Source: Okamejei kenojei (taxonomy: Eukaryota). Taken from it: a stretch of DNA of 64,000 nt. The notes beneath the pieces are model-generated. The model did not search any database and had not been told where the DNA came from. It saw nothing but the letters and a program-made list of their open reading frames with translations. Both the position numbers and the translations under genes were made by a program. The stretch spans positions 5,332,001 to 5,396,000 of the forward strand of contig CM069154.1 in the NCBI GenBank assembly GCA_035221665.1. The letters are read 5' to 3'. Shown here one piece after another: positions 6,228-64,000 of this stretch (its first letter is position 1; every line of letters starts with the position of its first letter).

Positions 6228-6323
6228 ATGGCAGTGGGACAGGGAGAATTCACCCACCAGAAACAGCCCAGATCCAGGGAACAGTCGCTCTGTTGGTTCT
6301 TGTCGCTGTTGGTCTCACATCAG
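6228..6323 (+). CDS. Copy A exon 1, signal peptide (..GTVALLVLVAVGLTS/G)
   Basis: Hydrophobic leader ends at donor CAG|GTAAAA. ATG 6228 is out of frame by one G versus copy B (ccagggaa vs ccaggggaa), while upstream ATG 6167 is in frame. Confidence 0.75.
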
Positions 6324-7293
6324 GTAAAATCGTTGTTTTACAAAATGCTCTGTCCTTTAGAATTATTTACCAGTGCTTTGAATTATTTGTAAACACAGAC
6401 CTCTCTGTACTGTGTGGGAGCTGATGATGAAGTGCTCAACACTCATTAGTTCATGTAGAGACTTCCATCAGCGGTTGTTTGTCGTGTTGTGTGCAGCCAA
6501 ATTGCACACAGCTAGCTCCCTGTAGAAAATGACCCGACAGCTGGCCTTGTTGATCTTGGGTGTTGGGGTAACTCTTGCCCTGGACCAGAGAGTTTGCTCC
6601 ACTATTCTGGTGCAAACTATCTCCAGGTGAACTTTCTCAGTGACTTGACAGCAGATCAGCTAAATGCTTACCACTTGCATATCTCTTGACTTCCTCCCTC
6701 GCTGACTGTTGGTCTGAAGAAGGGTCTCAACCCAAAATGTCACCCATTGCTTCTCTCCAGAGATGCCGCCTGACCCGCTGAGTTACTCCAGCATTTAGTG
6801 TCCATCAAAGACACATGGCACTCCCTCCACGCACTGCAATGGGAAATGTTGAATCTAAATCTTAGCACATTCAAAGAAAAAACCTGTGAGAGCCAGCCAT
6901 TGGGAACAGGTGGGCATCTCAAATGAGGAAGCACCAGAGTGACTGTCCAATTTAGCATTTGGAGAAGTTGAGGTAATCTCTCCTGAGAAAAAACAGTGCT
7001 TTACAGACTCTGCTGCTCGAGCTGTTCTCCACACTGTGCTTTCCCCAGCCTCTGAGTTCTCCTTCAAGGCATTTGTCTTGTGGCTTGTGAGCGGACCTGG
7101 ACTGATTGATCATGTGTCTCCATCCCAGATCCTGAATCTGCAGAGTTTCACATGTGTTAGAGTCATAGTGATACAGTGTAGAAACAGGCTCTTCAGCCAA
7201 CTTGCCCACACCGGCCAACATGTCTCAGCAACACTAGTCCCACCTGTCCATGTTAGGTCCATGTCCCTACAAACCTGTCCTAATCCATGTACC

Positions 7294-9170: not shown

Positions 9171-9580
9171 GAAAATCATATTGAATGGCACTGCTGGCTC
9201 GAATGGCCGAATTGCCTACTTCTGCGCCTATTTTCTATGGTTATATATTTCTATGAATCGTAACCTATCCACTTTCTCCAGAGATAGTTCCTGACCCATT
9301 GAGTTACTCCAGCACTTTGTGTCCTTTTGTGTATTAACCAGCATCTGCAGTTCCTTGTTTCTACTAGTTCAATGGGATGTGGGTTGTAGTGAGATTGAAC
9401 ACTATTGTAGTGAGATTGAAACCCGTCGGTTTCTTCAGAGATGCTGCCTGTCCCGCTGAGTTACTCCAGCTCTTTGTGTCTATCTTTGGTGTAAACCAGC
9501 ACCTGCAGTTCCTTGCTGCACATGATCTTTGCGAAACCATGAAGCTGTCTGAACAGCACAAATTACATGTTTTTTATTGT

Positions 9581-11448: not shown

Positions 11449-11773
11449 GGTCAAGGGGAGTAACTGAACCCGAGGAGGTGAGGGGAGAGTTGGGGCAGTC
11501 GGTCACTGTGGAATTTCAGTATGATTCGAAATATAGAGATTACAACAAGCTGTGGAGTAAAGGTGATGATTACCAGTCATCTTCTACCGTGGTTTCTACT
11601 GATGACCCACGACAAGGGAGAACATCGATAACTGATGACAAAACACAACAGATAAATTTCAGTAACCATCAACAACCTGGAGAAGAGTGATGAAGGACAC
11701 TACTGGTGTGTGATAGCAAAGGGAAAACATTCACACAATGAATCGACCTCCATCTCATTGAAGGTTTCTGAAG
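11449..11773 (+). CDS. Copy A Ig V-set domain 1 exon (B-strand Cys->Phe, +1 frameshift)
   Basis: cacag|GG acceptor and GAAG|gtacgt donor; GQSVTVE(F)QY..KLWSKG..GRTSITD..LEKSDEGHYWC. Confidence 0.85.
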
Positions 11774-12686: not shown

Positions 12687-13015
12687 GGTCAGGGGGAATA
12701 ACTGGACCCAAGGATGGTGACGAGAGAGTTGGGGCAGTCGGTCACTGTGGAATGTCGGTATGGTCAGGAATACAGTGACAACAGGAAGCTATGGAGTAAA
12801 GGTTATTATTACCGGTTATCTAAGACCGTGGTTTCTACTGATGACCCACGACAAGGGAGAACATCGATGACTGATAACAAAACACAACGGATACTTTCAG
12901 TAACCATCGACAACCTGGAGAAGAGTGATGAAGGACGCTACTGGTGTGTGATAGTAAAAAAGGAAATCTTTTTCAAGCAATGAAAGGACCTCCATCTCAT
13001 TGAAGGTTTCTGAAG
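12687..13015 (+). CDS. Copy A Ig V-set domain 2 exon (two +1 indels)
   Basis: GQSVTVECRY..KLWSKG..LSVTIDNLEKSDEGRYWC; same splice sites as D1. Confidence 0.85.
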
Positions 13016-15420: not shown

Positions 15421-15430
15421 ATTTTATTTT

Positions 15431-22790: not shown

Positions 22791-23276
22791 GATATGGACT
22801 TTACACTGAGCCGCACAAACTGCACAAGATGAAATACTCAACGGGTTGGGCAGCATCTGTGGAGAGAGAACGAGAGTTAATGTTTCATGTAGATACCTCC
22901 AACCAAATTGTATTATTTCCAATTCAGTCCACTTAATTAAAATAGTCCATGAATCCACCCGCTCCCAAGTTCTTCTCCAACGTAGAAGACATGGGCCTAA
23001 CTCTAGCAGCAGGAAGATAACACAGCCTGTGGGACTCTGAAGGGCATGAAAGAAGTCTCTGAATGCTTGCGACCATCCGGTGGCATCTTAATGGGTGAGC
23101 CTCCTGTCTAGATCAAGAGGCTTGGTCCATCTATGGTGGCCTCAGAAGGATCTTTGCCCAAATATGTGTAGTGGGATTCAAACAAAGAATCTCCCCCCCA
23201 CACCACTAAAACTGGCACAGGAACGTGCTTTCAGACATTTAATGTTCAAAAACTTAATTTTCTTTATCTCCACAAG

Positions 23277-23436
23277 GGTCTCAAACACAACGCCCAGACA
23301 TGGTCACCACCACCTCTTACAACAATAAGCACAAGGGCTTCCACCACAACTACTCTCACCACCCTGACCTCAAGATGCACCAATCACCAAGAAAGCAAGT
23401 TCCGTTGAGTCTCTTGATTCAACACCTCCCAAACAG
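23277..23436 (+). CDS. Copy A Ser/Thr-rich mucin-like stalk exon
   Basis: tttctttatctccacaag| acceptor and AACAG|gttagt donor; homologous to the open stalk exon of copy B, with three 1-bp insertions (net +3). Confidence 0.75.
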
Positions 23437-23489
23437 GTTAGTAACTCGAAGAGCCAACTCAGCCTCACCTGGAAGAACAAAATTAGTTA

Positions 23490-23795: not shown

Positions 23796-24056
23796 ACCCT
23801 AAATGGTCAGCATGGTCTCAATGGGCCAAAGGGCCTGTTGTCATATGGGCCAATGTCATATCTCTAAACTGTAAACTACCTTATAGTTCCTTACATACCA
23901 ATAGAATTATTCATAATGTTCTAGAATTTAACCTGCACTGCATTCAAGTCTAGTCCCACAATTTTACTTTCCGGATCGAAACACATGGTTCGTTACTGTG
24001 GAGGGAATCAGTCCTATTACCATGAGCTCGTCATTGTTTTTCCTTGTATTTTGCAG

Positions 24057-24172
24057 GGAGGCAGATATATTTTCATGGCAGGTTGTTCTTCCGATTGCCT
24101 TGACAATTGTCTTCCTTCTGTTCATCGCTGCCATTATCCTATGTGTAAAAACAAGGCAGAAAAAGAAAACTG
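24057..24172 (+). CDS. Copy A transmembrane exon (EADIFSWQVVLPIALTIVFLLFIAAIILCVKTRQKKKT)
   Basis: Polypyrimidine ttgcag| acceptor and G|gtaagt donor; ~22 hydrophobic residues with no charge, then a basic stop-transfer. Confidence 0.9.
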
Positions 24173-25769
24173 GTAAGTTGCGTTGAATGTACGTAAATAT
24201 CAAGGGGCACTCTTGTTGATTAACGTAGATTTGGCACTTCTCTCTGTGGTGCCTTTCACAAACTCAGACCATTCACCTAGCGTATAACAGCAGGGAAAGA
24301 CACCAAGTGCTGGAGTAACTCAGCGGGTCAGGCAGCATCAGGGCGGCACAGTGGCAAAGTGGGAGAGTTGCTGCCTTACAACGCCAGAAACCCGGGTTCG
24401 ATCCTGACTATGGGTGCTGTCTGTATGGAGTTTGTACGTTTTCCCTGTGAACGTGTGGGTTTACACCAGAGAGACAGGTCCTTTGGCCCAACTCGTCCTT
24501 ACTGACGCCCAAGGTGCTTCCCTACGCTAGTCCCACTTACCTCTGCTTGTCCCACATCACTCTTAAAGCTTTCTTCTCCATGTATCTCTCCAAATGTCTT
24601 TTAAACGCTGGAATTGGACTTGCCTTTACCACTTTCTCTGTTGGTTTGATCCGTGTGATGAGAGTGGTCAAATCTGGGGTGAATTGACAGGAAGATGGGG
24701 CGAATAAAATGGGATTGTGGAGATGAATGGAAATGGCTGCTTGATGGGCCAGCATGAGCTTTAAGGGCCAAAGGGCCTGCTTCCATACTGATGGTTCTGT
24801 GAAAACCATCTGGTTGGAAGCTGCAATAATATGCAGAAGTGCGTCAGTCTTATCTAGATTGAACAAGAATGTTTTTATCTGCAAATGGTACAGAGGAAGT
24901 GATGGCCACAGGAAGCCAGGAGACGATGATTCAGAAGCAGAAGGAGACAAACATATTTCCCAGCAGGTTCAGACATCGACGTCCTGTTATTTAGCTTAGT
25001 GATGACACGTCAAACCCACTGAATCTCCATGCAGTGAAATTATCCGGAAATTGTAAAGCGGTTTTGAAGTAGAACCTTTGGAAATGTCCAGGAGCGGTGG
25101 ATGTAAGATCTGCAGGAGGAGGCAGGAGAGATGACTGGTGACAACTTTACTGAATTCATCAAGTCATAGAACTATACAGCACTGGCCATGCACTGAAGTT
25201 TAAATGTGTTCTGCTCCTTCTCTGTTCACAATCTAATGCGTCACACCAGAAGCAAAGTTCAGCTCATTTGTAAATGACTAAATTAGTATTTGGTTTAGTT
25301 TAAAAAAGAACTGCCGGATAGTCGGTAGCCCCAAGTCGGCCGACCTGAGGGTCGGAGACAATTCCCTGCTACTTTTCCTCGATGCAATAGATTATATTAG
25401 ACAGACACATCTTCTCTCCAGAGATGTTGCTTGTCCCGCTGAGTTACTCCAGCATTTTGTGTCTACCTTCGGTGCAAACCAGCATCTACAGTTCCTTCCT
25501 ACACAGATTATATTAGAGTTGCGGGAAGTAACTTCATGAAAACATGTTTGTCCTGCATCCAATCCTCCTCCGCAAAGAGTGAACCATACAACTGTGCCTT
25601 ACAGCGCCAGAGACCAGGGTTCGATCCTGACTATGGGTCCGGTCTTTATGGAGTTTGTATGTTCTCCCCATGACCGCATGTATTTTCTCTGAGAACTTTG
25701 GTATCCTCCCACACTCCAAAGACGTACAGGTTTGCAGATTAATTGGCTTGGTATAAATGTAAATTGTAT

Positions 25770-28756: not shown

Positions 28757-28801
28757 CTGACACTATCTTTAAGTAATTATGTTTCTCACTTGACTCCAAA
28801 G

Positions 28802-28957
28802 GAAACCCCTGTCATTTATACCACCGTGACAACCCGTTCTCCAGCTAGCACGGAGAATAATTACATGAACCTTCAGGATCTGAACACACAAGGACAAGCC
28901 AAGAGGCAAGGTGCCGCAGAAGTTGTGTACGCAACAATTCTCACTGATAATAATTAA
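28802..28957 (+). CDS. Copy A terminal cytoplasmic exon: ETPVIYTTVTTRSPASTENNYMNLQDLNTQGQAKRQGAAEVVYATILTDNN*
   Basis: Acceptor AG at 28800-28801; two ITIM matches (VIYTTV, VVYATI) and YMNL; TAA at 28955-28957. Confidence 0.85.
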   Translation, partial: ETPVIYTTVTTRSPASTENNYMNLQDLNTQGQAKRQGAAEVVYATILTDNN

Positions 28958-45176: not shown

Positions 45177-45676
45177 NNNNNNNNNNNNNNNNNNNNNNNN
45201 NNNNNNNNNNNNNNNNNNNNNNNNNNNNNNNNNNNNNNNNNNNNNNNNNNNNNNNNNNNNNNNNNNNNNNNNNNNNNNNNNNNNNNNNNNNNNNNNNNNN
45301 NNNNNNNNNNNNNNNNNNNNNNNNNNNNNNNNNNNNNNNNNNNNNNNNNNNNNNNNNNNNNNNNNNNNNNNNNNNNNNNNNNNNNNNNNNNNNNNNNNNN
45401 NNNNNNNNNNNNNNNNNNNNNNNNNNNNNNNNNNNNNNNNNNNNNNNNNNNNNNNNNNNNNNNNNNNNNNNNNNNNNNNNNNNNNNNNNNNNNNNNNNNN
45501 NNNNNNNNNNNNNNNNNNNNNNNNNNNNNNNNNNNNNNNNNNNNNNNNNNNNNNNNNNNNNNNNNNNNNNNNNNNNNNNNNNNNNNNNNNNNNNNNNNNN
45601 NNNNNNNNNNNNNNNNNNNNNNNNNNNNNNNNNNNNNNNNNNNNNNNNNNNNNNNNNNNNNNNNNNNNNNNNNNNN
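45177..45676. other. Assembly gap (500 N, probably a fixed-size placeholder)
   Basis: N run of round length. Confidence 1.
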
Positions 45677-47979
45677 CCCCCCCCCCCCCCCTGTAGACCG
45701 ATACAGCACAGAAACAGGCCCCTTCTTCCCTAACTTGACACATGCGTGACCATATTGCTTACCTTTCTCTTGTTTAGTATACAGTTAAAGCGTGGGAAAC
45801 TGGCCCTTCGTGCCCACATATGTCCGCATAGAACAGCAATCCCACGCTTTAAACACTACCCTAACGCAGTAGGACTATTTACGACTTTTACCAAGCAACT
45901 AACCTACTTTGCCATATACGATTTTTGGAGTGTGGGGAGGAACTGAAGGAACCTTGGAGAAACCCGGCGGTTCAGGGGTGATCGTACAAACTACATACAG
46001 ACAGACCCGTAGTCGGGATCAAACCGACTGTAAACGTCTTGGTAAGGCAGCAGATCTACCTTGCGCCACCGTGCTGCCCCTAGGCCACTTGTCCCACTTG
46101 CCCGCGTTTGACCCCATCTCCTCTTTGTTCTGCCTTATTTGGTAAAATCAGTTTTCTACCTCAGTCAGGACAGTAGTGTCTCGGCCGGAATTTCAACATG
46201 CACTTTTTGCCTCCAATGATGCTGCTTGACCCGTTGAGTTTTTCAGGTGTTCTGCTATGTTCCAGTTTCTAGTATTTGCAATATCCTTTGGCTTCTCCCT
46301 ACACAACCCTTATCCTACTCAACAATGTTCTTCTCACAGAAGCTGATGGGTACATGGAGGAGCAGTCCTGAGGAGGTAGTGGAGAACTGGTACCTTTTAA
46401 CAACATTTTAAAGCATTAGACATGGTACGCGGATAGGAAGGTTTGTAGGGTCAGGGTCAAATGCAGCCTGGTTTTTATGGTGGCGCAGCTGCTAGAGGTG
46501 CTGCCTTACATTGCATTAACAGCGGAGATACCGGTTCATCCCGGCTTCAGGTGCTTGTCTGTACATAGTCTGTACTTTCTCCCCAGTGACCTGCGTGGGT
46601 TTTCTCCGAGAACTTCAGTTTCCTCCCACACTCATAGATGTACAGGTTTGTTGGTTAAATTGGGTTGGTGTAAATGTTTAACTTTTGTGTTGCTGTGCGG
46701 GGATCACTGGATGGTGCGGTACACGGTGGCCAGAGGGCCTGTTTCTTGACTGTATCTCTAAACGAAACTAAACGAAAGAGGGATTGCGTACATGGGACTT
46801 CTTCATCGGCATGGCAGCTGTTTCCGTGCTGTATCACTCCATGATTTTATGAAATCCCCCACCATTCCCCTCCCCCATAACAAGCTTTACCTGGTCTCCC
46901 GATGCATATATTTGAATTGTCTTTCAAGGACTTTATGGTGTCATTGAGTTGAACTTATTGATCGCATTTTTCAATAGACACAGACATAGGTGCTGTGTAG
47001 CCATTCAGCCCTTCGAGCCAGCTCTCTATTCAATGTGATCTTGGACCTGATCATCCACATCAGTACCCCGTTCCTGCCTTTCTCCTCATATCCCCCTTGA
47101 CTTCTGCTTTCTTTTTTTATTAAAATGTCTTTATTAGAGTAATGTACATTAACAATGATTATAAGCCAAAATAATTAATACATTTCCGGTACCACTTCTT
47201 ATTTTTTATTTTAAGACGAAGAAGAATATGAAGAATTAGAGAGAGTTAGATAGGATTGTAGTGCGTGAGAGGCGTTATCTGGAGGAGCCGCTACTTTAAG
47301 AGCCTATCTAGCTCTCTCTGATAGTATCCAGAGATCCGGCATCCACCGCTCTCTGAAGAGAGAATCTCCAGAGACTCACACACTCTGTGTGAAAAAAAAT
47401 GTTTCCTCATTTCCGTTCGTTGGTGCCTATTTATCCCGGGTAACTGTTTCAAAACTTGAGAAGCTGAGGAAGGCTGGACAAAATTAGTGATTCGCATTTT
47501 GAGTTGGGCATAATTGTCACAAGTTCACCACGTTTCAGGAGTAGAATATGGCCTTTCGGCCATCGAGTCTCCTCCGCCATTAAGCATGGATGATCTTGCC
47601 ACCAATCCATACATGTTCAGACACAGTGTGCCCGCTTTTGATGGGAGGGGGTTGAGGTGGTTGAGGTGGTGGGCACAGGGAATGTTTGCGTGGTGGACAG
47701 AGTGCCTGCAAAGCGGGCAAAACGTCACCAGGATGAAGCAGGCTTTGAGGAGATTACTCAATCAGGCAACAGGGGAGCATTGCAGCCACTCCTGATAGGT
47801 GCATTGTCCGTGGTGAGGAGGCTGGGGAGGTGGCAATGTGAGTCACCAAATTTAGTCTCGAACCACTGCAAAGTCATTTCTGAGCAAACGGGAATTGACT
47901 GTTTGACTTCTGTTGTGAATGAGGAAGAGGACAACTCAAACGCAGTGCAGGGTCCAAACCGATCCAACGCAGCCAAGAC

Positions 47980-48076
47980 ATGGCGGTGGGACAGGGAGAA
48001 TTCACCCACCAGAAACGGCCCAGATCCAGGGGAACAGTCGCTCTGTTGGTTCTTGTCGCTGTTGGTCTCACATCAG
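47980..48076 (+). CDS. Copy B signal-peptide exon
   Basis: gacATGG start context; 32 codons + 1 nt; CAG|gtaaat donor. Confidence 0.8.
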
Positions 48077-51000
48077 GTAAATCGTTGTTTTACAAAATGC
48101 TCTGTCCTTTAGAATTATTTACCAGTGCCTTGAATTATTTGTAAATACAGACCTGTCTGTACTGTGTGGGGAGCTGATGATGAATTGCTCAACACTCGTT
48201 AGTTCCTGTAGAGACTTCCATCAGCGGTTGTTGTCGTGTTGTGTGCAGCCAAATTGCACACAGCTCGCTCCCTGTGGAGAAGGGAGATAACTACCTACAG
48301 CTTGCCTTGCCTTGTGGACCTCACTGAAACTTACCAAATAGTGAAAGGCCTGGATAGAGTGGATGGTGGAGGATGTTTCCACTTGCGGAGAGTCTAGGAT
48401 CAGAGGTCACAGCCTCAGAATTAAAGAACGTTCCTTTAGGAAGGAGATGGGGAGGCAATTTCTTTAGTTAGGTGGTGAATCTGTGGAATTCATTGCTACA
48501 GGAGGCTGTGGAGGGCATGTCTATAGATATTTCTAAGGCCGAGATTAGATCGATTCTTGATCAGTAACTGGTGTTAGGAGTCTGGGGAGAAGACAGAAAG
48601 ATAGATCAGCATGATTGAATGGTGGAGAGTAGACTTGATGGGCCAAATGGCCTAATTCTGCTCCTAGTACTAATTAACTTAGATCTGTTCTTCAGAAATT
48701 TTACTAGCACTTGAATTATTTTGAGAACAGAGCAGACTACTGGGCTACGAGCTGCTAAAGATAAAAGTGCTTGCAGACTCTGTTCTTTCCTGCACTAATG
48801 ACTGTTGTGATGCTGTGCGCAGCCAACTTGCACACAGCTAACTCCTGTAGAAAATGATCCGACAGCCGGCCTTGTTTTGATCTTGGGTGTTGGGGTAACT
48901 CTTTGCCCTGGACCAGAGAGTTAGCTCCACTATTTCTGGTGCAAACTATCTCCCAGGTTAACTTTTCTCAGTGACTTGACAGCAGATCAGCTAAATGCTG
49001 TTACCCCTTGCATATCTCTTGACTTTTTCCATCCCTCGCTGACTGTTGGTCTGAAGACGGGTCTCGACCTGAAACATCACCATTGCTTCTCTCCAGAGAT
49101 GCCGCCTGACCCGCTGAGTTACTCTACGCAGCCATTTTTAGTGTCCATCAAAGACACACGGCACTCCCTCACGCACTGCAATGGGAAATGTTGAATTAAA
49201 TCTTAGCACATTCAAAGAAAAAACCTGTGAGACCAGCCTTTGGGAACAGATGGGCATTTTCAAAATTTTTTTTTTGGAGGGAAGCACCAGTGTGACTGTC
49301 CAATTTAGCATTTTGGAGAAGTTGAGAGTAATCTCTCCTGAGAAAAAAAACAGCTGCCTTTACAGGACTCTGCTGCTCGAGCTGTTCTCACACTGTGCTT
49401 TCCCCAGCCTCTGAGTTCCTCCTTCAAGGCATTTGTATTTGTGGCTCGTGTGAGACGGACCTGGACTGATCTGATCATGTGTCTCCATCCCAGATCTGAA
49501 TCTGAGAGTTTCACATGGTGGTTAGAGTCTAGGGATACAGTGTAGAAAACAGGCCCTTCATGCCCAACTTGCCCATCACCGGCCAACCATGTCTCAGCAA
49601 CACTAGTCCCACCTGTCCATGTTAGGATCAATGTCCCTACAAACCTGTCCTATCCATGTACCCAGGGCCGGCCTTAAGCCGTTTGGACGATTGCTCCCAA
49701 TTGGGCCGCGCGAGTACGTGGGCCCCACGCCAGAGTTATCTACTCTCGGCTCAGGTAGATCTACCTGGGTGGAGGGGGCGGCGGATAGAGAGGGGCGGAG
49801 ATAGAGTAGAGGGGGAGGGGGAAGAAAGGGGTAGACGGGGTAGATTGGGGAACGGAGAAGGGGGAGAAGGGGGAGAGGGGGAGGTGGGTCGTGTTTGCTC
49901 ACGGCAGCGCTCCCGCCCTTCCAGTCGCCGTGCTTCCCACACAGCCCCAGCTCCACCCCTCTCTCTCCCGGGGAGATGCGATAGTGAACAATACAGGGAG
50001 GGCCGGGCCGGGGGTTGGTTTCCCCCCCCCCTCCCCTGAGCGACGTTTACAAACATTCGGCCTCAGCTCACACCCCATCCGCCTGGACCCCGGCCTCAGC
50101 TCCCGCCACGGGCCCTCTCCCTCCTTCTTCTCTTCCCTCCCACACACCATCATGCACAGACCAACTAACACACACAACTAAGTTAGGATGGGGTAGAAGC
50201 CCAAAGGGTAGGATGGGGCTGAAGCCCAAAATCTAATGCCTGGATTGGTTTTTCACCAATGGTTATTGGTTTTCCAGGATCTATTTAATTAAATTACCCC
50301 CCCCTTTTTTTTTTAATCTTTTCACAGTCACAAAACCATTGTGGTATTGTAACTATGTACTTTTCAGAGGTGATCTACACATTTTGTTTGTTACTTGTAG
50401 GCTTACACGTATGCAATTTTATATTTAAAATGTAGCTTAGATCAGTTTGGTCCATTAAGTCGGCATGCACTTTTTAAGTGCAAAATGTTGATTACTTTGC
50501 ATTCTACCATAGAGATATGAAGTCCAGAATTAGACTTTAATTATATTTCTATGAATCTAGACCTTGGCTGGGAACCTGGGGCTCAACCAAATCGTTACCA
50601 CTTGGGCCCCACAACTCCTTTGGCCGCCCACCTGCATGTACCTGTCTAACTGTTTCTTAAAATGATGGGATAGTCCCTGCCTCAATTACCTCCTCTGGCA
50701 GCTTCATCCATACACCCACCCAGCCTTTGTGTGAAAAAGACACATCATAATTATTCCAGGTGGACGTTGGGACTGGAGTTTGAAAACATCAGTGGCAGAT
50801 CCAGCTTCCTCCACAGGCGGGAAGTTTAGTTCAATGGGGCACAAAGTGCTGGCATAACTCAGTAGGTCAGGCAGTATCTCATGGTCTTTACTGAAATGTC
50901 ACCTATCCATGTTCTCCACAGATGCTGCCTGACCTGGCTGAGTCACCACTGGCATCACAGGCAGCTGGCTATTCAGCTTTAGTAAAGCACAAAGTGCTGG

Positions 51001-54000
51001 AGAGGTAGGGTGAAGCAGCAGGGCAGGCAGATCTCTGGAGAACATCGATAGGTGACGTTTTGGGTTGAGACCTGAATTAGGGGAAGGCCAGATGAGGAAA
51101 AACCTTTTCACCCAGAGTTGTGAATCTGTAGGAATTCTTTGCCACAGAGGGCAGTGGAGGCCAAATTCACTGGATGTATTCAAGAGAGAGTTAGATATAG
51201 CTCTTAGGGCTAATGAAAATTCATGGGATAGGGGGATGCAAGCAGAACAAGGTACTGATTTTGGATGATCAGCCATGAACAAGTAGGACCTTGTCACCAA
51301 AACATCGCATCACTAGTAAAGAGAGCGCAGCAGCGTTTGCACTTTCTGCGCCGGATGAGAAGAGCTCACCTCCATCCCGTCCTCACCACTTTCTAAGGGG
51401 CACCATAGAGAGCATTTTGACAGCTGATCTGTCTGGTTGGGGACTGCAAAGCCTCCGACTGGAAGTCCGTGCACGAGAGTGGTGAGGACGGCTGAAAAAA
51501 ATCATGGGGACTTCTCTTCCTTCAATCCGGGACATTGCGCGCAAACGTTGCTTGTCCAAGGCCAACAGCATTATTAAAAAGACCCCACACATCTTTCCAT
51601 CATGGACTGTTCACTCTGCTGCCTCGGGCAAAAGGTTATCGCAGGTATAAGGAGCAGAAGGCCAGGTTCTGCAACAGCCTCTTCCCAGAGCCATCAGACT
51701 CTTGAATTCCATATAATGTGCCGCCACATATTATACTATTTTATCTTTTTATCTATTGATCTTTTTATATATTTTATCCTTTTGTTATTTTTATGTTAAC
51801 ACGGTGAGCCAGATGCAACGAAATTTCATTCCAACTTGCATGTTGTTGGTTGTATTTTTGAATGACAATAAAGTCTTTGATTGAAAATCATATTGAATGG
51901 CAGCAGTGCTGGCTCGAAGGGCCGAATTGCCTACTCCTGCGCCTTATTCTATGGTTATACTTTCTATGAATCGTTACCTATCACTTTCTCCAAGAGATAG
52001 TTCCTGACCCGTTGAGTTACTCCAGCACTTGAGTCCTTTGTGTATTAACCAGCATCTGCAGTTCCTTTGTTTCTACTAGTTCAATGGGGATGTGGGTTGT
52101 AGTGAGATTGAACACTATTGTAGTGTGATTGAAACCCGTCGGTTTTCTCCAGAGATGCTGCCTGTCCCGCTGAGTTACTCCAGCTCTTACATAGAAAGAA
52201 ACATAGAACAACATAGAAATTAGGTGCAGGAGTAGGCCATTCAGCCCTTCGAGCCTGCACCGCCATTCAATATGATCATGGTGATCATCCAACTCAGTAT
52301 CCCGTACCTGCCTTCTCTCCATACCCTCTGATCCCATAGCCACAAGGGCCACATCCAACCACTCTTAAATATAGCCAATGAACTGGCCTCAACTACCATG
52401 TGTGGGCAGAGAGTTCCAGAGGACTCACCACCCTCTGTGTGAAGAAAGTCTTCTCATCTCGGTCTTAAGGATTTCCCCCTTATCCTTAAGCTGTGACCCA
52501 TTGTCCTGGACTTCCCCAACATCGGGAACAATCTTCCTGCCATCTAGCCTGTCCAACCCCTTAAGAATTTTGTTAAGTTTAAATTTCTATAAGATCCCCT
52601 CTTAATCTCCTAAATTCCAGAGAGTATTAACCGTAGTCTATCCAGTCTTTCTTCATAAGGACAGTCCTGACATCCCAGGAAGAATCAGTCTGGTGAACCT
52701 TCTCTGCACTCCCTCTATGGCAATAATGTCCTTCCTCAGATTTGGAGAGACCAAAAACTGCACGCAATACTCAGGTGTGGTCTCACCAAGACCCTGTACA
52801 ACTGAAGTAGAACCTCCCCTGCTCCTGTACTCAAAATCCTTTTGCTATGAAAGCTAACATACCATTCGCTTTTTTTTTTTTTTTCACTGCCTGCTGCACC
52901 TGCATGCCTACTTTCTCAATGACTGGTGTACCATGACACCAGGTCTCGCTGCATCTCCCTTTTCCTAATCGGCCACCATTTTAATAATAGTCTGCTTTCC
53001 TGTTTTTGCACCAAAGTGGATACCTCACATTTATCCACATTATACTGCATCTGCCAAACATTTGCCACTCACCCAGCCTATCCAAGTCACCTTGCAGTCT
53101 CCTAGCATCCCTCCACAGCGAACACTGCCCCCCAGCTTAGTGTCATCCGCAAACTTGGAGTATTGCCTTCAATTCCTCATCCAGATCATTAATATATATT
53201 GTAAAAGCTGGGGTCCAGCACTGAGCCCTGCGGTACCCACTAGTTAACTGCCTGCCATTGTATTTTAACGTGAAAAGGACCGTTTACTCCTACTCTTTAC
53301 TTCCTGTTTGCCAGCCAGTTCTCTATCCACATCAATACTGAACCCTAATACCGTATGCTTTAAGTTTGTATACTAATATCTTATGTGGGACCTTGTCGAA
53401 AGCCTTCTGGAAGTCCAGATATACCACATCACTGGTTTCTCCTTATCCACGCTACTAGTTACATCCTCGAAATAATTCACATGATTCGTCAGACATGATT
53501 TACCTTTGTAAATCCATGCTGACTTTGTCAATGATTTCACACTTTCCAAATGTGCTGCTATCCCATCTTTAATAAATGACTCTAGCAGTTTCCCACTACC
53601 GATGTTAGACTAACTGGTCTGTAATTCCCCGTTTTCTCTCTCCCTCCCTTCTTAAAAAGAGGGTTACATTTGCTACCCGCCAATCCTCAGGAACTACTCC
53701 AGAATCTAAAGAGTTTTGAAAGATTATCACTAATGCATCCATATTTCCTGAGCTACTTCCTTAAGTACTCTGGATGCAGCCTATCTGGCCCTGGGGATTT
53801 ATCGGCCTTTAATCTATTCAATTTTACCCAAACACCACTTCCCGACTGACCTGGGGATTTCACTCAATTCCTCTTTGACCCACAGTCCCCTGCTATTTCA
53901 GGCAGATTATTTATGTTTTCCTTAGTGAAGACGGAACCCAAAGTAGTTATTCAATTGGTCCGCCATATCCTTGTTCCCCATGATAACTCACCTGTTTCTG

Positions 54001-57000
54001 ACTGCAAGGGACCTACATTTGTTTTAACTAACCTCTTTCTCTTCAATATCTATAAAAACTTTTGCAGTCAGTTTTTATGTTCCCTGCCAGTTCTCTTTCA
54101 TAATCTATTTTTCCTTCCTAATTAAGCCCTTGTCCTCCTCTGCTGGGTCTCTGAATTTTCTCCAGTCCTCTGGTATGCTGCTTTTTCTGGCTACTTTGTA
54201 CGCATCATCCTTTGCTTTGATACTATCCCCTGATTTTCCCTTGTTATCCACGGATGCACTACCTTCCCCGATTTATTCTTTGTGCCAAACTGGGATGAAA
54301 CAATTTTTGTAGTTCATCCATGCAGTCTTTAAATGTCTTCCATTTGTATATATCCACCGTCAACCCTTTTAGAATTAATTGCCAGTCAATCTTGGCCAAT
54401 TCACGTCTCATACCCTCAAAAAGTTACCTTTCTTTAAGTTCAGAACCATTGTTTCTGAATTAAACAATGTCACTCTCCATCCTAATGGAGAACTCAACCA
54501 TATATTATGGTCACTCTTGCCCAAGGGGGCACGTACAACAAGACGGCTAATTACCCCTTCCTCATACTCAAACCCAGTCTAAAATAGCTGCTCTCTCGTT
54601 GGTTCCTCTACATGTTGATTTAGATAACTATCCCGCATACCATTCCAAAAAATCCTCTTCCTCAGCACCCCTGCCCAATTTGATTAACCCAATCTATATG
54701 TAGATTGAAGTCACCCATTATAACTGTTTTGCCTTTGTCGCACGCATTTCTAATTTCCTGTTTGATACCATCCCCAACTTTCTCTGCTAACTGTTAGGTG
54801 GCCTGTACACAACACCCACCAGCGTTTTCTGCCCCTTAGTGTTTTGTAGCTCTACCCATACCGATTCCACATCCTCCAAGCTAATGTCCTTCCTTTCCAT
54901 TGCTTTAAATGGTGGCCGATTAGGAAAAGGGGAGATGCAGCGAGACCTGGGTGTCATGGTACACCAGTCATTGAAAGTAGGCATGCAGGTGCAGCAGGCA
55001 GTGAAAAAAAGCGAATGGTATGTTAGCTTTCATAGCAAAAGGATTTGAGTACAGGGGAGCAGGGAGGTGTCTACTTCAGTTGTACAGGGTCTTGGTGAGA
55101 CCACACCTGGAGTATTGCGTGCAGTTTTGGGTCTCCAATCTGAGGAAGGACATTATTGCCATAGAGGGAGTGCAGAGAAGGTTCACCAGACTGATTCCTG
55201 GGATGTCAGGACTGTCTTATGAAGAAAGACTGGATAGACTCGGTTTATTACTCTCTGGAATTTAGGAGATTAAGAGGGGATCTTATAGAAACTTACAAAA
55301 TTCTTAAGGGGTTGGACAGGCTAGATGCAGGAAGATTGTTCCCGATGTTGGGGAAGTCCAGGACAAGGGGGTCACAGCTTAAGGATAAAGGGGGGAAAAT
55401 CCTTTAAGACCGAGATGAGAAAGACTTTCTTCACACAGAGAGTGGTGAGTTCTCTGGAAACTCTCTGCCACAGAGGGTAGTTGAGGCCAGTTCATTGGCT
55501 ATATTTAAGTGAGTTGGATGTGGCCCTTGTGGCTAAGGGGATCAGAGGGTATGGAGAGAAGGCAGGTACGGGATACTGAGTTGGATGATCAGCCATGATC
55601 ATATTGAATGGCGGTGCAGGCTCGAAGGGCTGAATGGCCTACTCCTGCACCTAATTTCTATGTTTCTATGTTTCTATGTTTTAATCTCCTCTCTAACCAG
55701 CAACGCTACTCCACCTCCTTTTCGTTTCTCTCTATCCCTCCTGAATATTGAATATCCCTGGATGTTCAGCTCCCAGCCTACGTCACCCTGGAGCCATGTC
55801 TCCGTGATCCCAACTATATCATAATCATTAATATCTATCTGCACGTTCAACTCGTCCACCTTATTACGAATACTCCTTGCATTGAGACACAAAGCCTTCA
55901 GGCTTGTCTTTACAACGCATTTTACTCCTTATACAATTTTGCTGAAAAGTGGCCCTTTTTGATTTTAGCCCTGGTTTTGTCTGCCTGCCACTTTTACCTT
56001 TCACCTTGCTACCTAATGCTTCTACCTCATTTTACACCCTCCTGCCTCTCTGCTCTTGTACCCATCCCCTGCCACATTAGTTTAAATCCTCCCCGACAGC
56101 ACTAGCAAACACTCCCCCAAGAACATTGGTTCCATTCCATTCCAGGTGCAAACCGTCCTGTTTGTACCGGTCCCACCTCCCCCAGAACTGGTCCCAGTGC
56201 CCTAAAAAATTTGAATCCCTCCCCCTTGCACCACTTTTCAAGCCACGTATTCATTTGCATTATCCTCCTATTTCTACTCTGACTGGCCCGTGGTACTGGT
56301 AGTAATCCGGAGATTACTACCTTTGAGGTCCTACTTTTAAGTTTATCTCCTAGCTCCCTAAATTCACCTTGTAGGACCTCATCCCTTTTTTTACCTATAT
56401 CGTTGGTGCCAACATGCACCACGACAACTGGCTGTTCACCCTCCCCCTCCAGAATGTTCTGCAGCCGTTCAGTGACATCCCTGACCTTTGCCCAGGGAGG
56501 CAACATACCATCCTGGAGTCTCGTTTGCGGCCGCAGAAACGCCTATCTATTCCCCTGACAATTTGAATCCCCTATTACTATTGCCCTTCCCCTCTTTTTT
56601 CCCCCCTCATGTGCTGCAGAGCCACCCATGGTGCCATGAACCTGCCTGCTGCTGCATTCCCCTGATGAGCCATCTCCCTCAACAGTATCCAAAATGGTAT
56701 ACCTGTTTAGGAGGGTAGATGACCGCAGGGACTCTTTGTGTCTATCTTTGGTGTAAACCAGCACCTGCAGTTCCTTGATGCTGCACATGATCTTTGCGAA
56801 ACCATGAAGCTGTCTGAACAGCACAAATTACATGTTTTTTTATTGTTAACCAACCAACCAACCCAGCCAGACCACAGTCTACAAAGAATGGACCCGGCAT
56901 CCTCTCCTTCCCATTCACCACTTCACACCTACTTAAGGCAAGACTCCAGTATGAAAATACTGTCACTTCACACCCACTCACAAAGACTGGGCCCTTCTAC

Positions 57001-60000
57001 GCCCACCCCCCTCCAATCACCACTTCACACCAAATCACCCACACCCTCTGTCACTTATCAAATATCAACAATAAAAATAGAGGAGGAGGAGAGGCATTTC
57101 AGAGGACAAAAAAGCCGGAAATCTCCAGGACTTGACAATGTTTCCCCCTCGACTCTTAAGCTCTGTGCCAAACAGCTGGCACCGGTCTACACAGACATTT
57201 TAAACCAGTCCCTGCAAACATGTACTGTCCCTGCCTGCTTCAAAGTCTCCACTATTGTCACTGCACCCAAAAAGGCAAGGATTACTTGTCTTAATGACTA
57301 CAGGCCTGTCACACTGACCTCTGTAGTCATGAAGACACTCTAAAGGCATGTGCTGGCCAAGCTGAAAAATATCACAAACCCAGTGCTGGACCCTCTGCAA
57401 TTTGCATATCGGGCCAATAGATCTGTGGATGATGCAGTCAACCTGGGCCTGCACTTCATCCTAGACCACCAGGGGACCTATGCGAGGATCCTGTTTATTG
57501 ATTTTAGCTCTGCATTCAACACCATTGTGCCAGAGCTACTACACTCCAAACTTTCCAAGTTGACTGTGCCTGAACCCCTCTGTCGGTGGATCACCAGCTT
57601 CCTGACAGACAGGAAGCAGCATGTGAGGCTGGGAAAGCACATCTCGGACCCCCAAACGCTCAGCATAGAGGCACCGCAAGGCTGCGTACTCTCCCCTCTC
57701 CTCTACTCTCTCTGCACCAATGACTGCACCTCTACAGACTCCTCTGCCAAACTTCCCAAGTTTGCGGACGATACAACCCTGATTGGACTGATCCAGGATG
57801 GGGAGGAATCTGCCTACAGACAGGAAGTGTCACAGCTGGCGTCCTGGTGCCGTAGCAACAACCTAGAGCTCAATGCTCTTAAGACAGTGAAATTGATTGT
57901 GGACTTTAGGAGAGCTCCCCCTCCCCTCATCTCACTCACCATCAACAACACCACAGTCACATCTGTGGAGTCGTTTAAGTTCCTGGGAAATATCACCTCC
58001 AAGGACCTTAAGTGTGGGCGACCATCAACTCCACAGTCAAAAAGGCACAACAGAGGATGTACTTCCTACGGCAGCTGAGGAAGCACAATCTGCCACAGGC
58101 AATGATGGTCCAATTCTACACGGCCATCGTAGAGTCTGTTCTCACCTTCTCCATCATGGTCTGGTTTGGCTCAGCACCAAGCACGACACCTGGAGGCTGC
58201 AGCGAATCGTCCGATCAGCTGAGAAGGTTATTGGCTGCAACCTTCCCTCCATTGATGAACTGTACACTGCAAGGGCCAGGAAGCGAGCGGGCAAGATCAT
58301 CTCTGACCCCTCTCACCCTGGCCACAAACTCTTTGAATCACTTCCCTCTGGAAGGCGACTCAAAGCTGCCACATAAAAAACTGTTTTTATCCACGAGTAG
58401 TTGCTCTACTCAACAGCCAAAAATCTGTAGCCTCCCTTTGATCTGATATTTTGTTGGTTCACATGCTTAATCAATGGTGTTTTATCATTAATGTTTTATT
58501 ATTATTAATGTTTAGTATTTTCTGAGTGATTCGTAACTGTCACTGTATGTCATGTTGTTACGTGTGGGCGGAGCACCAAGGCAAATTCCTTGTATGTGAA
58601 TACTTGGCCAATAAACTTACTTACTTACTTAAACCTCAGCTTGTGTTGCTGCAGTGTGAGTGATCTTTCATCATTAATGTGCCCACAGGGTCAAGGGGAG
58701 TAACTGAACCCGAGGAGGTGAGGGGAGAGTTGGGGCAGTCGGTCACTGTGGAATGTCAGTATGATTGGAAATATAGAGATTACAGCAAGCTGTGGAGTAA
58801 AGGTGATGATTACCAGTCATCTTCTACCGTGGTTTCTACTGATGACCCACGACAAGGGAGAACATCGATAACTGATGACAAAACACAACAGATAGTTTCA
58901 GTAACCATCAACAACCTGGAGAAGAGTGATGAAGGACACTACTGGTGTGTGATAGCAAAGGGAAAACATTCACACAATGAATCGACCCCCATCTCATTGG
59001 TGGTTTCTGAAGGTACGTTGACGATCTCTCTCCTCACGCTCCCAGATGTGAAAATTCCCAGCCTGGGAATTTCGGCCTCAGTCCAGATGGTGACTCGGTG
59101 CCACATCCCCGGGGGTCGAGGTGGATGGGGAGGGGGGGGGGGGGTGGTGGTGGTGGTGGTGCATACATCATTTACTGGGCCCACTGTCCCAGGAGCAGTA
59201 TAGGGGGGGGATGTCAGACACCAGCCCCACGGAAGATCCCAGCTACCGCGGTTCTGCTGCTGAGGCTCATTTCCCGAAAGACGATCGCTCTGGGACCAGA
59301 ACCTCCAGAACCAGGTGGGGGAAAACCGGCCCCTCACCCACCAGGGTGGAGAAAGGGAGAAAGGGGTCAAGGGGGAAGGGGAGGGCGCAGGTTAGTAGAA
59401 GATAGTTAAAATTAGAGAATTCAACGTTCAAACCGTTGGGTTGTAAACTACCTGAGCGTAATATGAGGTGCGGTTCCTCCAACCTGCATGTGGCCTTACT
59501 CTGGCAATGGAGGAGGCCCAGGACAGACAGGTCAGTGTGGGAATGGGAAGGGACGTTGACAGGGTTGGCAACCGGGAGATCAAGAAGGGTCCCGACCCGA
59601 AAAGGCCACCTACCCTTTTACTCCAGAGATGCTGCCTGATCTGTCATCAGTCTGAAGAAGGGTCTTGACCCGAAACGTCGCCTATTTCCTTCACTCCATA
59701 GATGCTTCCGCCCTCACCAGCTGAGTTTCTCCAGCATTTTTGTCTACCTGCCGAGTTACTCCAGCACTTTGTGTCAATCTTTGGTGTAAACCAGCACCTG
59801 CAGTTCCTTGCTACACATGATCTATGCAAAACCATGAACCTGTCTGAACAGCACAAATGACATGTTTTTTATTGTTAAACCTCAGCTTGTGTTGCTGCAG
59901 TGTGAGTGATCTTTCATCATTCATGTGCCCACAGGGTCAGGGGGAATAACTGGACCAAAGGAGGTGAGGGGACAGTTGGGGCAGTCGGTCACAGTGGAAT

Positions 60001-63000
60001 GTCGGTATCGTCAGGAATACAGTGACAACAGCAAGCGATGGCTTAAAGGTTATTATTACCGGTTATCTAAGACCGTGGTTTCTACTGATGACCCACGACA
60101 AGGGAGAACATCGATAACTGATAACAAAACACAACGGATACTTTCAGTAACCATCGACAACCTGGAGAAGAGTGATGAAGGACACTACTGGTGTGCGATA
60201 CACGTACGATGGAACTTCGATGAAAGGACATCCATCTCATTGAAGGTTTCTGAAGGTACGTTGAAGATCTCTCCTCACTCTCCCAGATGTGAACATTCCA
60301 GCCTGGGAATTCCTGGCCTCGGTCCTGACGGTGATTCGGTGCCACATCGCCGGGAGTCAGGGTGAAGGGGGGGAGCACATTTACAGGGGTCCATGAGCCC
60401 ACTGTCCAAGGAGCAGTGTGTGTATGTGTGTGTGTGGGGGGGGGGGGGGGACGGGGACGGGGAGGGGGGGACCTCGTGAACGGGGACCGGCGGTTCTGCT
60501 GCTGGCGGCTCATTTCCCCAAAGACGATCGCTCCAGGACCAGAACCTCTGCCGTCCCCTCACTGTGGCAGGAGGGGTGGAACCGCCCCCTCACCCTCTCC
60601 CCCTGCCCGTCACTGTCACACCCACACACACACATCATCTGAAGAAAGGTCCCAACCCTATACATCGTCCGTTCATTCCTTCCACAGATGCTGCCGGACC
60701 TGCTGAGTTACTCCAGCACTTTGTGTTTTGCTCAAGATTCCAGCACCTGCAATTCCTTGTGTCTCACAAACTTTGGTGATTCATGAGCTCAGTTTATTGT
60801 TGTCGTCTGTTCCGACGTACAGGGAAAAGCTTTTACCGTGTTTCCAATGAGGGCCAAGTCACTGGGTATTTTTAGGATTCACAGGTTCTCGATTAGTATG
60901 GGTGTCAAGCGATATGGGGAGAAGGGAAGAAAATGGGGTTGAGAGGGAGAGATAGATCAGCCATGATTGAATGGCGGAGTAGACAAAAATGGGCCAAATG
61001 ACCTCATTCCTCCCCTAACACATGAACTTCATTGCAAGAGGATTTCAGTACAGGAGTGGAGAGGTTCTTCTGCAGTTGTATAGGGGTCTGGTAAGACCAC
61101 ATCTGGAGTGTTGTGTCCAGTTTAGGTCCCCTAATTTGAGGAAGGACATCCTTGTGATTGAGGCAGAATCACGAGATTGATCCATGGGAAGGCGGGACTG
61201 TCACACGAGGAAAGATTGAAAAGACTCGGCTCTAAACTGGAGTTTAGGAGGATGAGTGGAGATCTTATAGAAACATATAAAATTATAAAAGGACTGGACA
61301 AGCTCGATGAAGGAAAAATGTTCCCAATGTTGGGCGAGTCCAGAACCAGGGGGCACAGTCTTAGAATAAAGGGGAGGCCATTTAAGACTGAGGTGAGAAA
61401 AAACTTTTTCACCCAGAGAGTTGTGAATCTGTGGAATTCTCTGCCACAGAGGGCAGTGGAGTCCAAATGACTGGATGGATTTAAGAGAGAGTTAGATGGA
61501 GCTCTCGGGGCTAGTGGAATCAAGGGATATGGGGAGAAGGCAGGCATAGGTTATTGATTGGGGACGTTCAGCCCTGATCACAATGAATGGCGATGCTGGC
61601 TCAAAGGGCCGAAAGGCCTCCTCCTGCACCTATTTTCTATGTTTCTATAACTTATGAACGAAGAATCCTCATGAGATGACTGATATGTCATCTTCCGAAC
61701 TTTTTGTATTATTATAGGGCAGTGCATATAAAGGATAATTTACTGCTTGGACAGTTCTACCCAACAGACAGAATGAATAAGAATGGAGAAAGAGGACTGT
61801 TCTCCTTGTAATATAGGAGCGATCCTCTTCTCCCCGATAAAACTGAACAACACAATATATAAGAATAACCTAATTATACATGATACAATAAGAATTTGGA
61901 AACAAATAAAATTATCCTTAAAATTAAGAAACCTATCTTTGTTAATGCCAATAGTGAATAACCCTTCATTTAAACCATCTCTTATTGATAAAACATATAA
62001 TCAATGGGAAAGAATGGGAATTAAAAGGATCGGTGATAATGTATGAAATGGGAAATCTGTTATCATTCCAAAATTCCAATTAAAATTTTAACTGAAAAAT
62101 AACCAATATTTTAAATATCTTCAGATCTGCGACTTCATGAAGAAATACATACAAAGATATCAAAACAACTTTAGATCCACTGGAAGAAGCAATGAACATT
62201 AAGGCTGACTCACAGAAATTAATATCATATTTATATGATAGTATTTTAAATATAGATTTACCATCGACAGAGGCACTTAGAGAAGAGTGGGAATGAGAAT
62301 TAATGATAAAAATTACGAAGGAAACATGGGAAAACGTATTTGGTATATATACATAAATGTTCAATTAATGTAAGATAAAATTGAATAAAAATTTTACATA
62401 GATTATATTACTCAAAAACTAGATTGAATAAATTCTATCCAAATATTTCCCCCATTTGTGATAAATGTCTATCCCAAAATGCAACGATAACACACTCTTT
62501 TGTCTCCTGCATAAAACTGCATATAAATTCTGGAGTGATATTTTTGAAATATTTACAAAATCTATTTATCTATTTAAGATAAAAATGGAACCTAATACTG
62601 AAATGATTGTATTTGGAGTAATGGCAGATGGGAATAAATTGAACTCATCTCAAATTTTATTTTTTAATTATCGGTTAATAATGGCAAAAAAACGTATACT
62701 TTTGGAAAAATACAGCCATACTAATGCTTAAAATGTGGATTTCAAACATGTTGGACACTGCACATCTTGAGGAAACGCGATTCCTCCTAATAGATAAATC
62801 AGACCAATTTTTAACGAGTTGGTCTCCATTTGTCGACTTTTTGGAAGCATATGGTGCAACAAAATGGTAGAAGCTAACTGTTTCAGGATTGGGAGAGGGA
62901 TGGTCACGAATATAGATAACGATCTCCTTAATCTCTTACTTTCTACTCTTTCTCTTTCTTTTTTCTTTTTCTTTCTCAACTTTCTTCTTTCACACTTTTT

Positions 63001-63867
63001 TTCTTTCTCACACACTATATATCACATGTTTCTATCTTTTATTATCTTTTCTCTCTTTTTCTTTTTCATTATTAAAAAGAATAATAATAAGAAGCTGTAC
63101 ATACAATGTAACATGTCAATATATATTAGGCACCTTGATGCCATATTCCTGTACTTACTTTTAATAAAATAAAAAATAAAAAAAAATAAAATTTAAAAAA
63201 AAATACAAAAATGAGATGACTGATATGGACTTTACACTGAGCCGCACAAACTGCACAAGATGAAATACTCAACGGGTTGGGCAGCATCTGTGGAGAGAGA
63301 ACGAGAGTTAATGTTTCATGTAGATACCTCCAACCAAATTGCATTATTTCCAATTCAGTCCACTTAATTAAAATAGTCCATGAATCCACCCGCTCCCACT
63401 TTAAGTTCTTCTCCAACGTAGAAGACATGTGCCTAACTCTAGCAGCAGGAAGATAACACAGCCCGTGGGACTCTGAAGGGCATGAAAGAAGTCTCTGAAT
63501 GCTTGCGACCATCCGGTGGCATCTTAATGGGTGAGCCTCCTGTCTAGATCAAGAGGCATGGTCCATCCATGGTGGCCTCAGAAGGATCTTTGCCCAAATA
63601 TGTGTAGTGGGATTCAAACAAAGAATCTCCCCCCCACACCACTAAAGTGGCACAGAATGTGCTTTCAGACATTTAATGTTCAAAAACTTCATTTTCTTTA
63701 TCTCCACAAGGGTCTCAAACAAGCCGCCCAGACATGGTCACCTCCATCTCTACAACAATAAGCACAAGGGCTTCCACCACAACCACTCTCACCACCCTGA
63801 CTCAAGATGCACCAACCACCAAGAAAGCAAGTTCCATTGAGTCTCCTGGTTCAACACCTCCAAACAG
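47980..63867 (+). CDS. CD300/pIgR(CMRF35)-like receptor, copy B, 5' part; exons 47980-48076, 58689-59012, 59935-60255, 63711-63867; continues past the window
   Basis: Spliced frame is open: MAVGQGEFTHQKRPRSRGTVALLVLVAVGLTS / IgV1 (108 codons) / IgV2 (107 codons) / GSQTSRPDMVTSISTTISTRASTTTTLTTLTQDAPTTKKASSIESPGSTPPN. Confidence 0.88.
49663..50634. mobile_element. Non-autonomous hAT-like DNA transposon
   Basis: 8-bp TSD catgtacc (49655-49662 and 50635-50642); imperfect TIRs CAGGGCCGGCC / GGCCGCCCACCTG. Confidence 0.75.
52189..56731 (-). mobile_element. CR1 LINE, 4.5 kb, with SGNH-esterase ORF1 and APE-RT ORF2; present only in copy B
   Basis: IVIGDS and VVVHVGTNDIG; CLNARSIRNK..DIVGITETWL; (ttctatgt)n tail; ctctt repeated at 52184-52188 and 56732-56736; empty site at ~9470. 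Confidence 0.92.
54906..55680 (+). mobile_element. Nested CR1 3' fragment inserted in opposite orientation into the endonuclease region of the host CR1
   Basis: [22 protein letters not shown]; (tttctatg)3 tail; tttaa at both junctions. Confidence 0.88.
56848..58630 (+). mobile_element. Rex1/Babar-like LINE (duplicate of 9581-11390)
   Basis: ORF 57350-58078 RT: LDPLQFAYR, APQGCVLSPLLY, KFADDTT. Confidence 0.9.
58689..59012 (+). CDS. Copy B Ig V-set domain 1 exon (intact)
   Basis: VTVECQY..KLWSKG..DEGHYWCVI; canonical B-F Cys pair, C-strand Trp and DxGxYxC. Confidence 0.92.
59935..60255 (+). CDS. Copy B Ig V-set domain 2 exon (intact)
   Basis: VTVECRY..KRWLKG..DEGHYWCAIHVRWNFDERTSISLKVSE. 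Confidence 0.92.
61690..63205 (+). mobile_element. Older L1 3' fragment, uninterrupted (empty site at ~62654)
   Basis: Equals 14470-15420 joined to 22220-22790. Confidence 0.8.
63711..63867 (+). CDS. Copy B mucin-like stalk exon
   Basis: Open S/T/P-rich frame, phase 1 in and phase 2 out, matching the TM exon phase seen in copy A. Confidence 0.85.
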
Positions 63868-64000
63868 GTTAGTAACTTGAAGAGCCAACTCAGCCTCACC
63901 TGAGAACAAATTAGTTAAGTTCAATTCAGCTCAATTTAAAGATACAGTGTGGAAATGGACCCTTTGGCCCACTGAGTCCGCTCTGAGCAGCGATCTCCCC

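Follow-up and report, generated by a model that had tools for sequence, protein, structure and literature searches.

Probable mosaic origin, through short gene-conversion tracts, of the second V domain of a CD300/pIgR-like receptor gene in the skate Okamejei kenojei

The stretch of 64,000 nucleotides analysed here (the window, C24:5332001-5396000, taken from contig CM069154.1 of the 2.76-Gb genome of Okamejei kenojei) contains two copies of one receptor gene. Copy A occupies approximately 6.2-29 kb of the window, and copy B starts at 48 kb and extends past the window end. Both share the same architecture, namely a signal peptide, two V exons (D1 and D2), a Thr/Ser/Pro stalk, an uncharged transmembrane (TM) segment and a tail with the motifs VIYTTV, YMNL and VVYATI. 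As the TM segment is uncharged and the tail carries tyrosine motifs, A and B appear to be inhibitory-type CD300/pIgR-like receptor genes with two V domains. The D2 exon of copy B is probably a mosaic of paralogue types, put together by short gene-conversion tracts and accompanied by selection for variety at a predicted cleft. The nearest relative switches along this exon, both classes of its FG loop, similar to complementarity-determining region 3 (CDR3), are present in another skate genus, and amino-acid-changing (N) variants are in excess over silent (S) ones across the family. The parts of the two D2 exons that matter most are the following:

12687..13015, plus strand: copy A D2 exon, long GIFSSNE class, with the FG segment at about 12945-12984 and two +1 frameshifts
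59935..60255, plus strand: copy B D2 V-set immunoglobulin (Ig) exon, open, 106 codons, a probable mosaic of paralogue types
60033..60050, plus strand: copy B D2 C-strand stretch KRWLKG, identical to four paralogues and with 3 differences from every A-type exon
60191..60232, plus strand: copy B D2 FG (CDR3-like) segment, short RWNFDE class

In copy B the nearest exons to 59935-60032 and to 60051-60190 are A-type, the second of these segments having only 2 differences from copy A, and the introns flanking D2 are A-type on both sides. Between the two segments KRWLKG shows 0 differences from the four other paralogues. The FG segment is equal in length to, and identical in 39 of 42 letters (3 differences) with, the exon at C24:5651105, which belongs to a single-domain gene with an arginine-bearing TM segment (Arg-TM) and has a stop within the FG loop. 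It is also equal in length to C24:5222566, with 5 differences, and is separated from the A-type exons by 16-17 differences and a difference in length. The six A-type D2 exons are only 0-2 letters apart in the FG segment, and copy B differs from each of them at 10-14 of 24-27 letters. The FG tract of copy B is limited by A-type informative letters at 60141 and at about 60349. A short tract common to another paralogue with own-type sequence on its flanks, which is how a gene-conversion mosaic is recognised, was therefore found in copy B.

Patchwork gene conversion had been one of the two explanations offered by the original prediction, which was made from the letters of the window, and it is supported. 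The nearest neighbours switch by segment, the pairwise homoplasy index (PHI) gave p 0.0006 with all 23 full-length V exons of the cluster, and six of nine parent pairs gave p 0.0001-0.019 in triplet tests. Moreover, approximately unbiased (AU) tests rejected the grouping of copy B with seven short-loop exons on the framework (0.011) and with the six long-loop two-domain exons on the FG segment (3.5e-6). Several results weigh against the mosaic. PHI gave p 0.27 when the FG segment was removed (17 non-D1 exons), three of the nine triplet tests were non-significant and all nine were picked after viewing the alignment, and the fairer constraint on the FG segment, that is copy B with all seven long-loop exons, was not formally rejected (AU 0.06). 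In addition, 8 of the 23 full-length V exons are broken in the assembly, four 500-N stretches lie within the assembled cluster, and contigs from four other public runs, none of which spans the exon, are without the letter of copy B at 60009 or 59957. No RNA run was listed among the public runs; the best DNA runs contain about half of the sequence words and, being available only as contigs, neither confirm nor refute the copy B haplotype.

Two other origins of the exon were considered. Convergence of the copy B loop was rejected, as its length and 39 of its 42 letters match a paralogue, and somatic rearrangement is unlikely as the germline exon already forms a full V-J-like unit flanked by normal splice sites.

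Both loop classes, being present in a second skate genus, are evidently older than the present lineage, and the loop was apparently not rewritten after the split of A and B. In the Amblyraja protein P0011 the D2 loop reads AIRVRWNFSE, the D1 loop is of the GKHS type and the TM segment is uncharged; the Amblyraja and Leucoraja proteins with GI(L/F)SS loops include P0013, P0014, P0008 and P0009. The D2 loop of P0011 is closest to that of copy B (8/10) and its framework is closest to the exons at C24:5550009 and C24:5651105. Moreover, among the six uncharged TM exons only that of copy B starts with E-T-W, and P0011 has D-T-W. The nearness of the P0011 loop to that of B, its framework lying nearest to others and the TM start shared with B favour a direction in which copy B retained an RWNF loop of old origin and had its introns, D1 and D2 framework overwritten by A-type genes, a course of events to which we give about an even chance. 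The import of the loop by an A-type gene through one tract of roughly 35-200 bases is a simpler event and comes close behind, as a serious if somewhat less probable possibility, and the transfer of a whole D2 exon from a donor absent in the assembly is unlikely. Under either direction KRWL is a separate short patch. The FG loop of D2 had been described as wholly replaced; the loop does differ, although the direction may be the reverse, with the old loop kept and its surroundings overwritten.

The introns of the two copies are nearly identical, as had been stated (100 of 6285 aligned letters differ, 1.6%), and 14 of 27 letters differ in the FG segment. The two loops had been quoted as CAIHVRWNFDE in B and CVIVKKEIFF(S)NE in A. 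The first, encoded at 60192-60224, is exact and the lengths do differ, but the second crosses a frameshift that had passed unnoticed: the loop of A is 7 letters longer than that of B, so that the quoted string is a read-through over the frameshift. The near-twin open exon at C24:5590113 has the loop CVIVKKGIFSSNE. Outside the FG segment of D2, the count by eye of 10 codons with an amino-acid change against 3 silent ones was recovered exactly, whereas the 5 and 0 counted for D1 became 6 and 0. The comparison of exons with introns gave a divided answer, as D2 outside FG lies above the introns (14/291, P 0.0005) and D1 does not (7/324, P 0.27).

The original prediction had inferred diversifying selection from these A/B counts, which do not support it, and its support comes instead from the family as a whole. 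A tree-free count, taking each variant once per codon in the 15 open exons and robust to shuffling, gave 107.5 N and 20.5 S steps, with a ratio of 1.64-2.03 (P 0.016-0.0008) depending on the transition bias, which is near 3 in the introns. This ratio was 2.31 without the FG segment and 3.28 for variants present in at least two exons, and the signal, TM and tail exons gave 0.4-1.0. Amino-acid-changing variants are enriched in the BC, CC', C'D and FG loops family-wide (P ~5e-8; 0.002 without FG), and in five two-domain genes the N sites of D2 diverge more than the introns (0.106 vs 0.047, P 0.0013). Moreover, the M0 model, which like the site models was run in our own implementation with branch lengths scaled from a nucleotide tree, gave an omega of 2.86, and all 52 neutral patchwork simulations were lower (maximum 2.03). 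The M2a and M8 tests, which are site models of the kind that had been proposed as a check, are not usable as proof: the likelihood-ratio statistic was 95, which no neutral simulation reached, but 51 of the 52 neutral simulations also passed the 5% level, and for this reason neither the M1a-M2a nor the M8 comparison is taken as evidence.

Against selection stand, in the first place, the two copies themselves. D2 outside FG has a pN of 0.049 and a pS of 0.045 (224 N and 67 S sites), hence a pN/pS of 1.1 (P 0.59), and N against S is not significant for D1 (P 0.18) or for D1 and D2 pooled (P 0.27); the pairwise dN/dS of A and B was accordingly rejected as proof of selection. The concentration of changes in predicted loops, which had also been claimed, is found family-wide and not between A and B, where 2 of the 10 changed non-FG codons lie in the BC, CC' and C'D loops (P 0.73), and the C and F strands each have 2 of the others. 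Furthermore, the stalk exon has an N/S of 3.25 (P 0.035; five sequences), so that the N excess is not confined to the V domains, silent variants are also weakly enriched in the loops (P 0.03), and the N sites of D1 in the five two-domain genes are not above the introns (P 0.17). Nevertheless, the diversifying signal appears to be real across the family. As sources of the high dN/dS, GC-biased conversion was rejected, changes from weak to strong bases not being in excess (26 vs 26), and sequencing errors were rejected because the excess is larger in shared variants.

Both V domains of copy B match the Pfam V-set profile above its cut-off. The predicted model of D2 (predicted local distance difference test, pLDDT, 95) finds its best folds in CD300lf/CD300f, with a TM-score of 0.91-0.93 to mouse CD300lf. 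In the structural account drawn on here, CD300lf has a cleft between CDR3 and CC' that accommodates both phosphatidylcholine and the norovirus capsid; Cys36-Cys44, Tyr34, Trp89 and Met100 form its floor, and Asp98 holds a metal (PMC6166816). CD300lf residues 74-107 align without a difference in length to a distant member of the cluster, and from the alignment ranges R34, L36, D95 and R97 of copy B appear to be in register with Tyr34, Cys36, Asp98 and Met100. By this register both foreign patches of copy B, KRWL and FG, would map onto the predicted cleft. Positions 34, 36, 83, 87, 97 and 99 vary, which are 6 of 7 outward positions on the C, F and G strands, and 0 of 10 inward positions do, inward and outward being assigned from strand alternation. 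The variation of the family would thus lie on the predicted cleft face, the counterpart of the lipid and norovirus face of mouse CD300lf. At the metal position Asp is present in most short-loop exons and Asn in the long-loop and D1 exons. The C-C' cysteine pair (Cys36-Cys44 in CD300lf) is found in 0 of 15 close exons aligned and in all 6 distant members aligned (KYWC...C).

Short conversion tracts may thus move patches among the cluster paralogues, while selection likely favours variety at the cleft of C strand, CC' loop and FG loop, a putative binding site by homology with mouse CD300lf. The selecting agent could be pathogen mimicry of a self ligand. These receptors would then likely work as inhibitory receptors for a self ligand, the cleft being pressed by microbial mimics and patches being swapped with Arg-TM partners.

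The same mosaic could have arisen neutrally, by gene conversion under relaxed constraint in a cluster evolving by birth and death; it would then be real, with no variant favoured. The 8 broken exons among 23, the pN/pS of 1.1 between A and B, the higher number of silent variants in loops, a B-strand Cys to Phe change in three exons and the unreliability of site-model tests for this family all fit this explanation. Relaxation, however, predicts a dN/dS near 1 and 1.6-3.3 was observed, the M0 omega exceeds every one of the neutral simulations, inward strand positions are invariant while outward ones vary, and the loop classes persist across genera, which makes it improbable.

It can also be asked whether the D2 exon of copy B is a read chimera of several paralogues, and copy A a duplicated haplotype with consensus errors. 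Five letters in or beside the D2 exon of B are found in 0 of 22 other exons, some of them being missing from the four other runs. A gene in inverted orientation at a distance of 250 kb (C24:5574549-5599887) aligns with copy A along 25.6 kb, and the alignment has 246 mismatches and 467 gap openings. Such an indel excess against a gene with open V exons suggests consensus errors in A, perhaps in a duplicated haplotype; alternatively, the pair may stem from a very recent inverted duplication. Besides the frameshift in its FG loop, the D2 exon of A has a further +1 close to its 5' end, and D1 has a third. These frameshifts are rather likely to be an assembly artefact, which leaves the loop classes standing. 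The 5' parts of the two copies (A 4054-9474, B 45772-52188) differ by very dense 1-base indels, which increase toward the N stretch at 45177-45676, a pattern expected of a low-coverage consensus. As for copy B, every one of its exons has an open frame in the right phase, and a short-class FG loop is covered by a contig of run X2. The loop of B is 3 letters off the nearest paralogue and closer than the latter to the Amblyraja protein, a combination not expected from mixed reads. A chimera is therefore a slightly poorer explanation than neutral conversion. A rewriting of the FG loop by rapid point mutation under diversifying selection after the A/B duplication, suggested by introns differing by 1.6% against about 50% in the loop and by a family dN/dS above 1, is very improbable, as the copy B loop has the length and 39 of 42 letters of another paralogue, the six A-type exons differ in the loop by 0-2 letters only and the presence of both classes in Amblyraja proteins largely refutes it.

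The other exons of the two copies are as follows:

47980..48078, plus strand: copy B signal-peptide exon, open
58689..59012, plus strand: copy B D1 V-set exon, open, GKHSHNE loop class
63710..63868, plus strand: copy B stalk exon, Thr/Ser/Pro-rich, open
C24:5396478-5403417, outside the window: copy B TM and tyrosine-motif tail exons
6228..6327, plus strand: copy A signal-peptide exon, frameshifted in the assembly
11449..11773, plus strand: copy A D1 exon, one +1 frameshift, Phe in place of the B-strand Cys
23273..23438, plus strand: copy A stalk exon, at least two frameshifts in the assembly
24056..24174, plus strand: copy A TM exon, uncharged (inhibitory type)
28799..28954, plus strand: copy A last exon, with VIYTTV, YMNL and VVYATI tyrosine motifs, resembling immunoreceptor tyrosine-based inhibitory motifs (ITIM)

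In D1 of copy A (11514-11516) and in the exons at C24:5591345 and C24:5651105, Phe (TTT) takes the place of the canonical B-strand Cys, and its presence in three exons indicates a shared variant rather than an error. This change would abolish the sole disulfide of these domains. Positions 1-31300 of the window and C24:5574549-5602612, both near 500-N stretches, differ by about 1% mismatches and about twice as many indels. The first intron of copy B has approximately 4.5 kb (52188-56732) absent from A, with an internal inverted repeat (52197-52984 / 54904-55675), and the D2-stalk intron of A has approximately 6.8 kb (15430-22220), related to 32052-38495 and absent from B. Directly upstream of D1 both copies have a decayed stretch (57080-58400 in B), which by eye we take to be reverse-transcriptase-like, of the long interspersed nuclear element (LINE) type.

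D2-exon matches across the 664 kb of C24:5072001-5736000 number 26, of which 23 are full-length and 15 of these open. The same interval has 6 uncharged and 9 Arg-bearing TM exons and 7 tyrosine-motif tail exons. Copies A and B have two V domains, several neighbours one and one neighbour three. The proteins nearest to B come from skates and rays and bear the names CMRF35-like or pIgR-like, with 72-80% identity in three skate genera; a search for proteins of near-equal length gave no match. The stalk region of B (63701-63875) is 99.4% identical to C24:5494102-5494276, in an Arg-TM neighbour, and most of the TM exon of B recurs unchanged in the gene at C24:5129063. With both exons so close to those of other cluster genes, patchwork exchange appears to reach past the V exons. 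A second and more distant block of approximately 25 V exons (C24:5773817-6288928; L023, L025-L028, L030) has 31-40% identity. These distant exons reach about 6.29 Mb, and several have an FG loop ending in DP, as in CD300lf.

The cluster has in common with CD300 a V-set Ig domain of the CD300/pIgR/TREM type, a Pro/Ser/Thr-rich stalk (in A and B) and paired members, with ITIM-type tails on one side and Arg-bearing TM exons on the other, whose signalling is presumed from these motifs. D95 of copy B is at the position of the metal-binding Asp98 of CD300lf by register, as a predicted counterpart only. However, CD300 has a single V domain where A and B have two, and CD300lf has a second disulfide (C-C') where the close skate clade has none. 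The cluster appears to work like CD300-type paired receptors, although it falls short of CD300 in the strict sense by its missing second disulfide and its domain number. EBP50_C, which we take to be a neighbour family of the CD300 locus, gave matches only on contig C22. Searches for the IL10 family gave no match, the positive control being likewise silent. The account of primate CD300 drawn on here gives GPRC5C and RAB37 as synteny markers, and describes the loss of the second disulfide in some primates and conversion between CD300A and CD300C (PMC12447643). Among the nearest counterparts are the paired CD300 receptors of mammals (CD300A/CD300C; CD300lf/CD300ld), in which conversion makes a pair alike, whereas in the skate it would shuffle or spare sub-domain patches from old loop classes.

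pIgR binds and transcytoses polymeric Ig, and is a single gene in the IL10 cluster region. It has tandem V domains like A and B, is the top PDB sequence match by summed score and gives its name to the 'pIgR-like' skate and ray relatives. It is nevertheless less close than CD300lf by single-domain score and by fold, and unlike it the skate cluster is multigene and paired, with Arg-type TM members and tyrosine-motif tails. The MDIRs (modular domain immune-type receptors) of the clearnose skate are described as multigene activating and inhibitory receptors related to CD300/TREM/pIgR (PMC3031540), and as far as that description goes they are of the same broad kind as the present cluster. No MDIR-named protein was among the database relatives returned for these receptors, and no paper on CD300-like receptors of cartilaginous fish with gene conversion or pairing was found in a search that did not reach the original MDIR paper. 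In the CEACAM family repeated gene conversion is reported together with selection at pathogen-contact surfaces (PMC8860441), and in CEACAM32 conversion in introns and not in Ig exons (PMC7042247), which, to the extent of that report, parallels the direction in which the copy B loop was spared. The CEACAM proteins are another Ig family, with tested pathogen ligands, whereas those of the skate cluster are hypothetical.

Conversion with diversifying selection, known from mammalian paired receptors, would by these results be extended to a CD300-like cluster of cartilaginous fish; the mechanism is already known and the lineage is new. Copies A and B provide a natural loop-swap, that is, a nearly identical scaffold with different cleft loops and Asp or Asn at the CD300lf metal position. 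They also indicate that near-identical introns can mislead on the age of a coding difference. More tentatively, trans-species FG-loop cassettes (RWNF/PLNF/SYF-Asp, GIFSS-Asn, GKHS-Asn, GRDS) and C-strand patches might be moved by conversion between inhibitory and activating receptors, toggling the metal Asp and the ligand class. If true, this would amount to germline CDR3-like shuffling in a CD300-like clade without the cleft disulfide.

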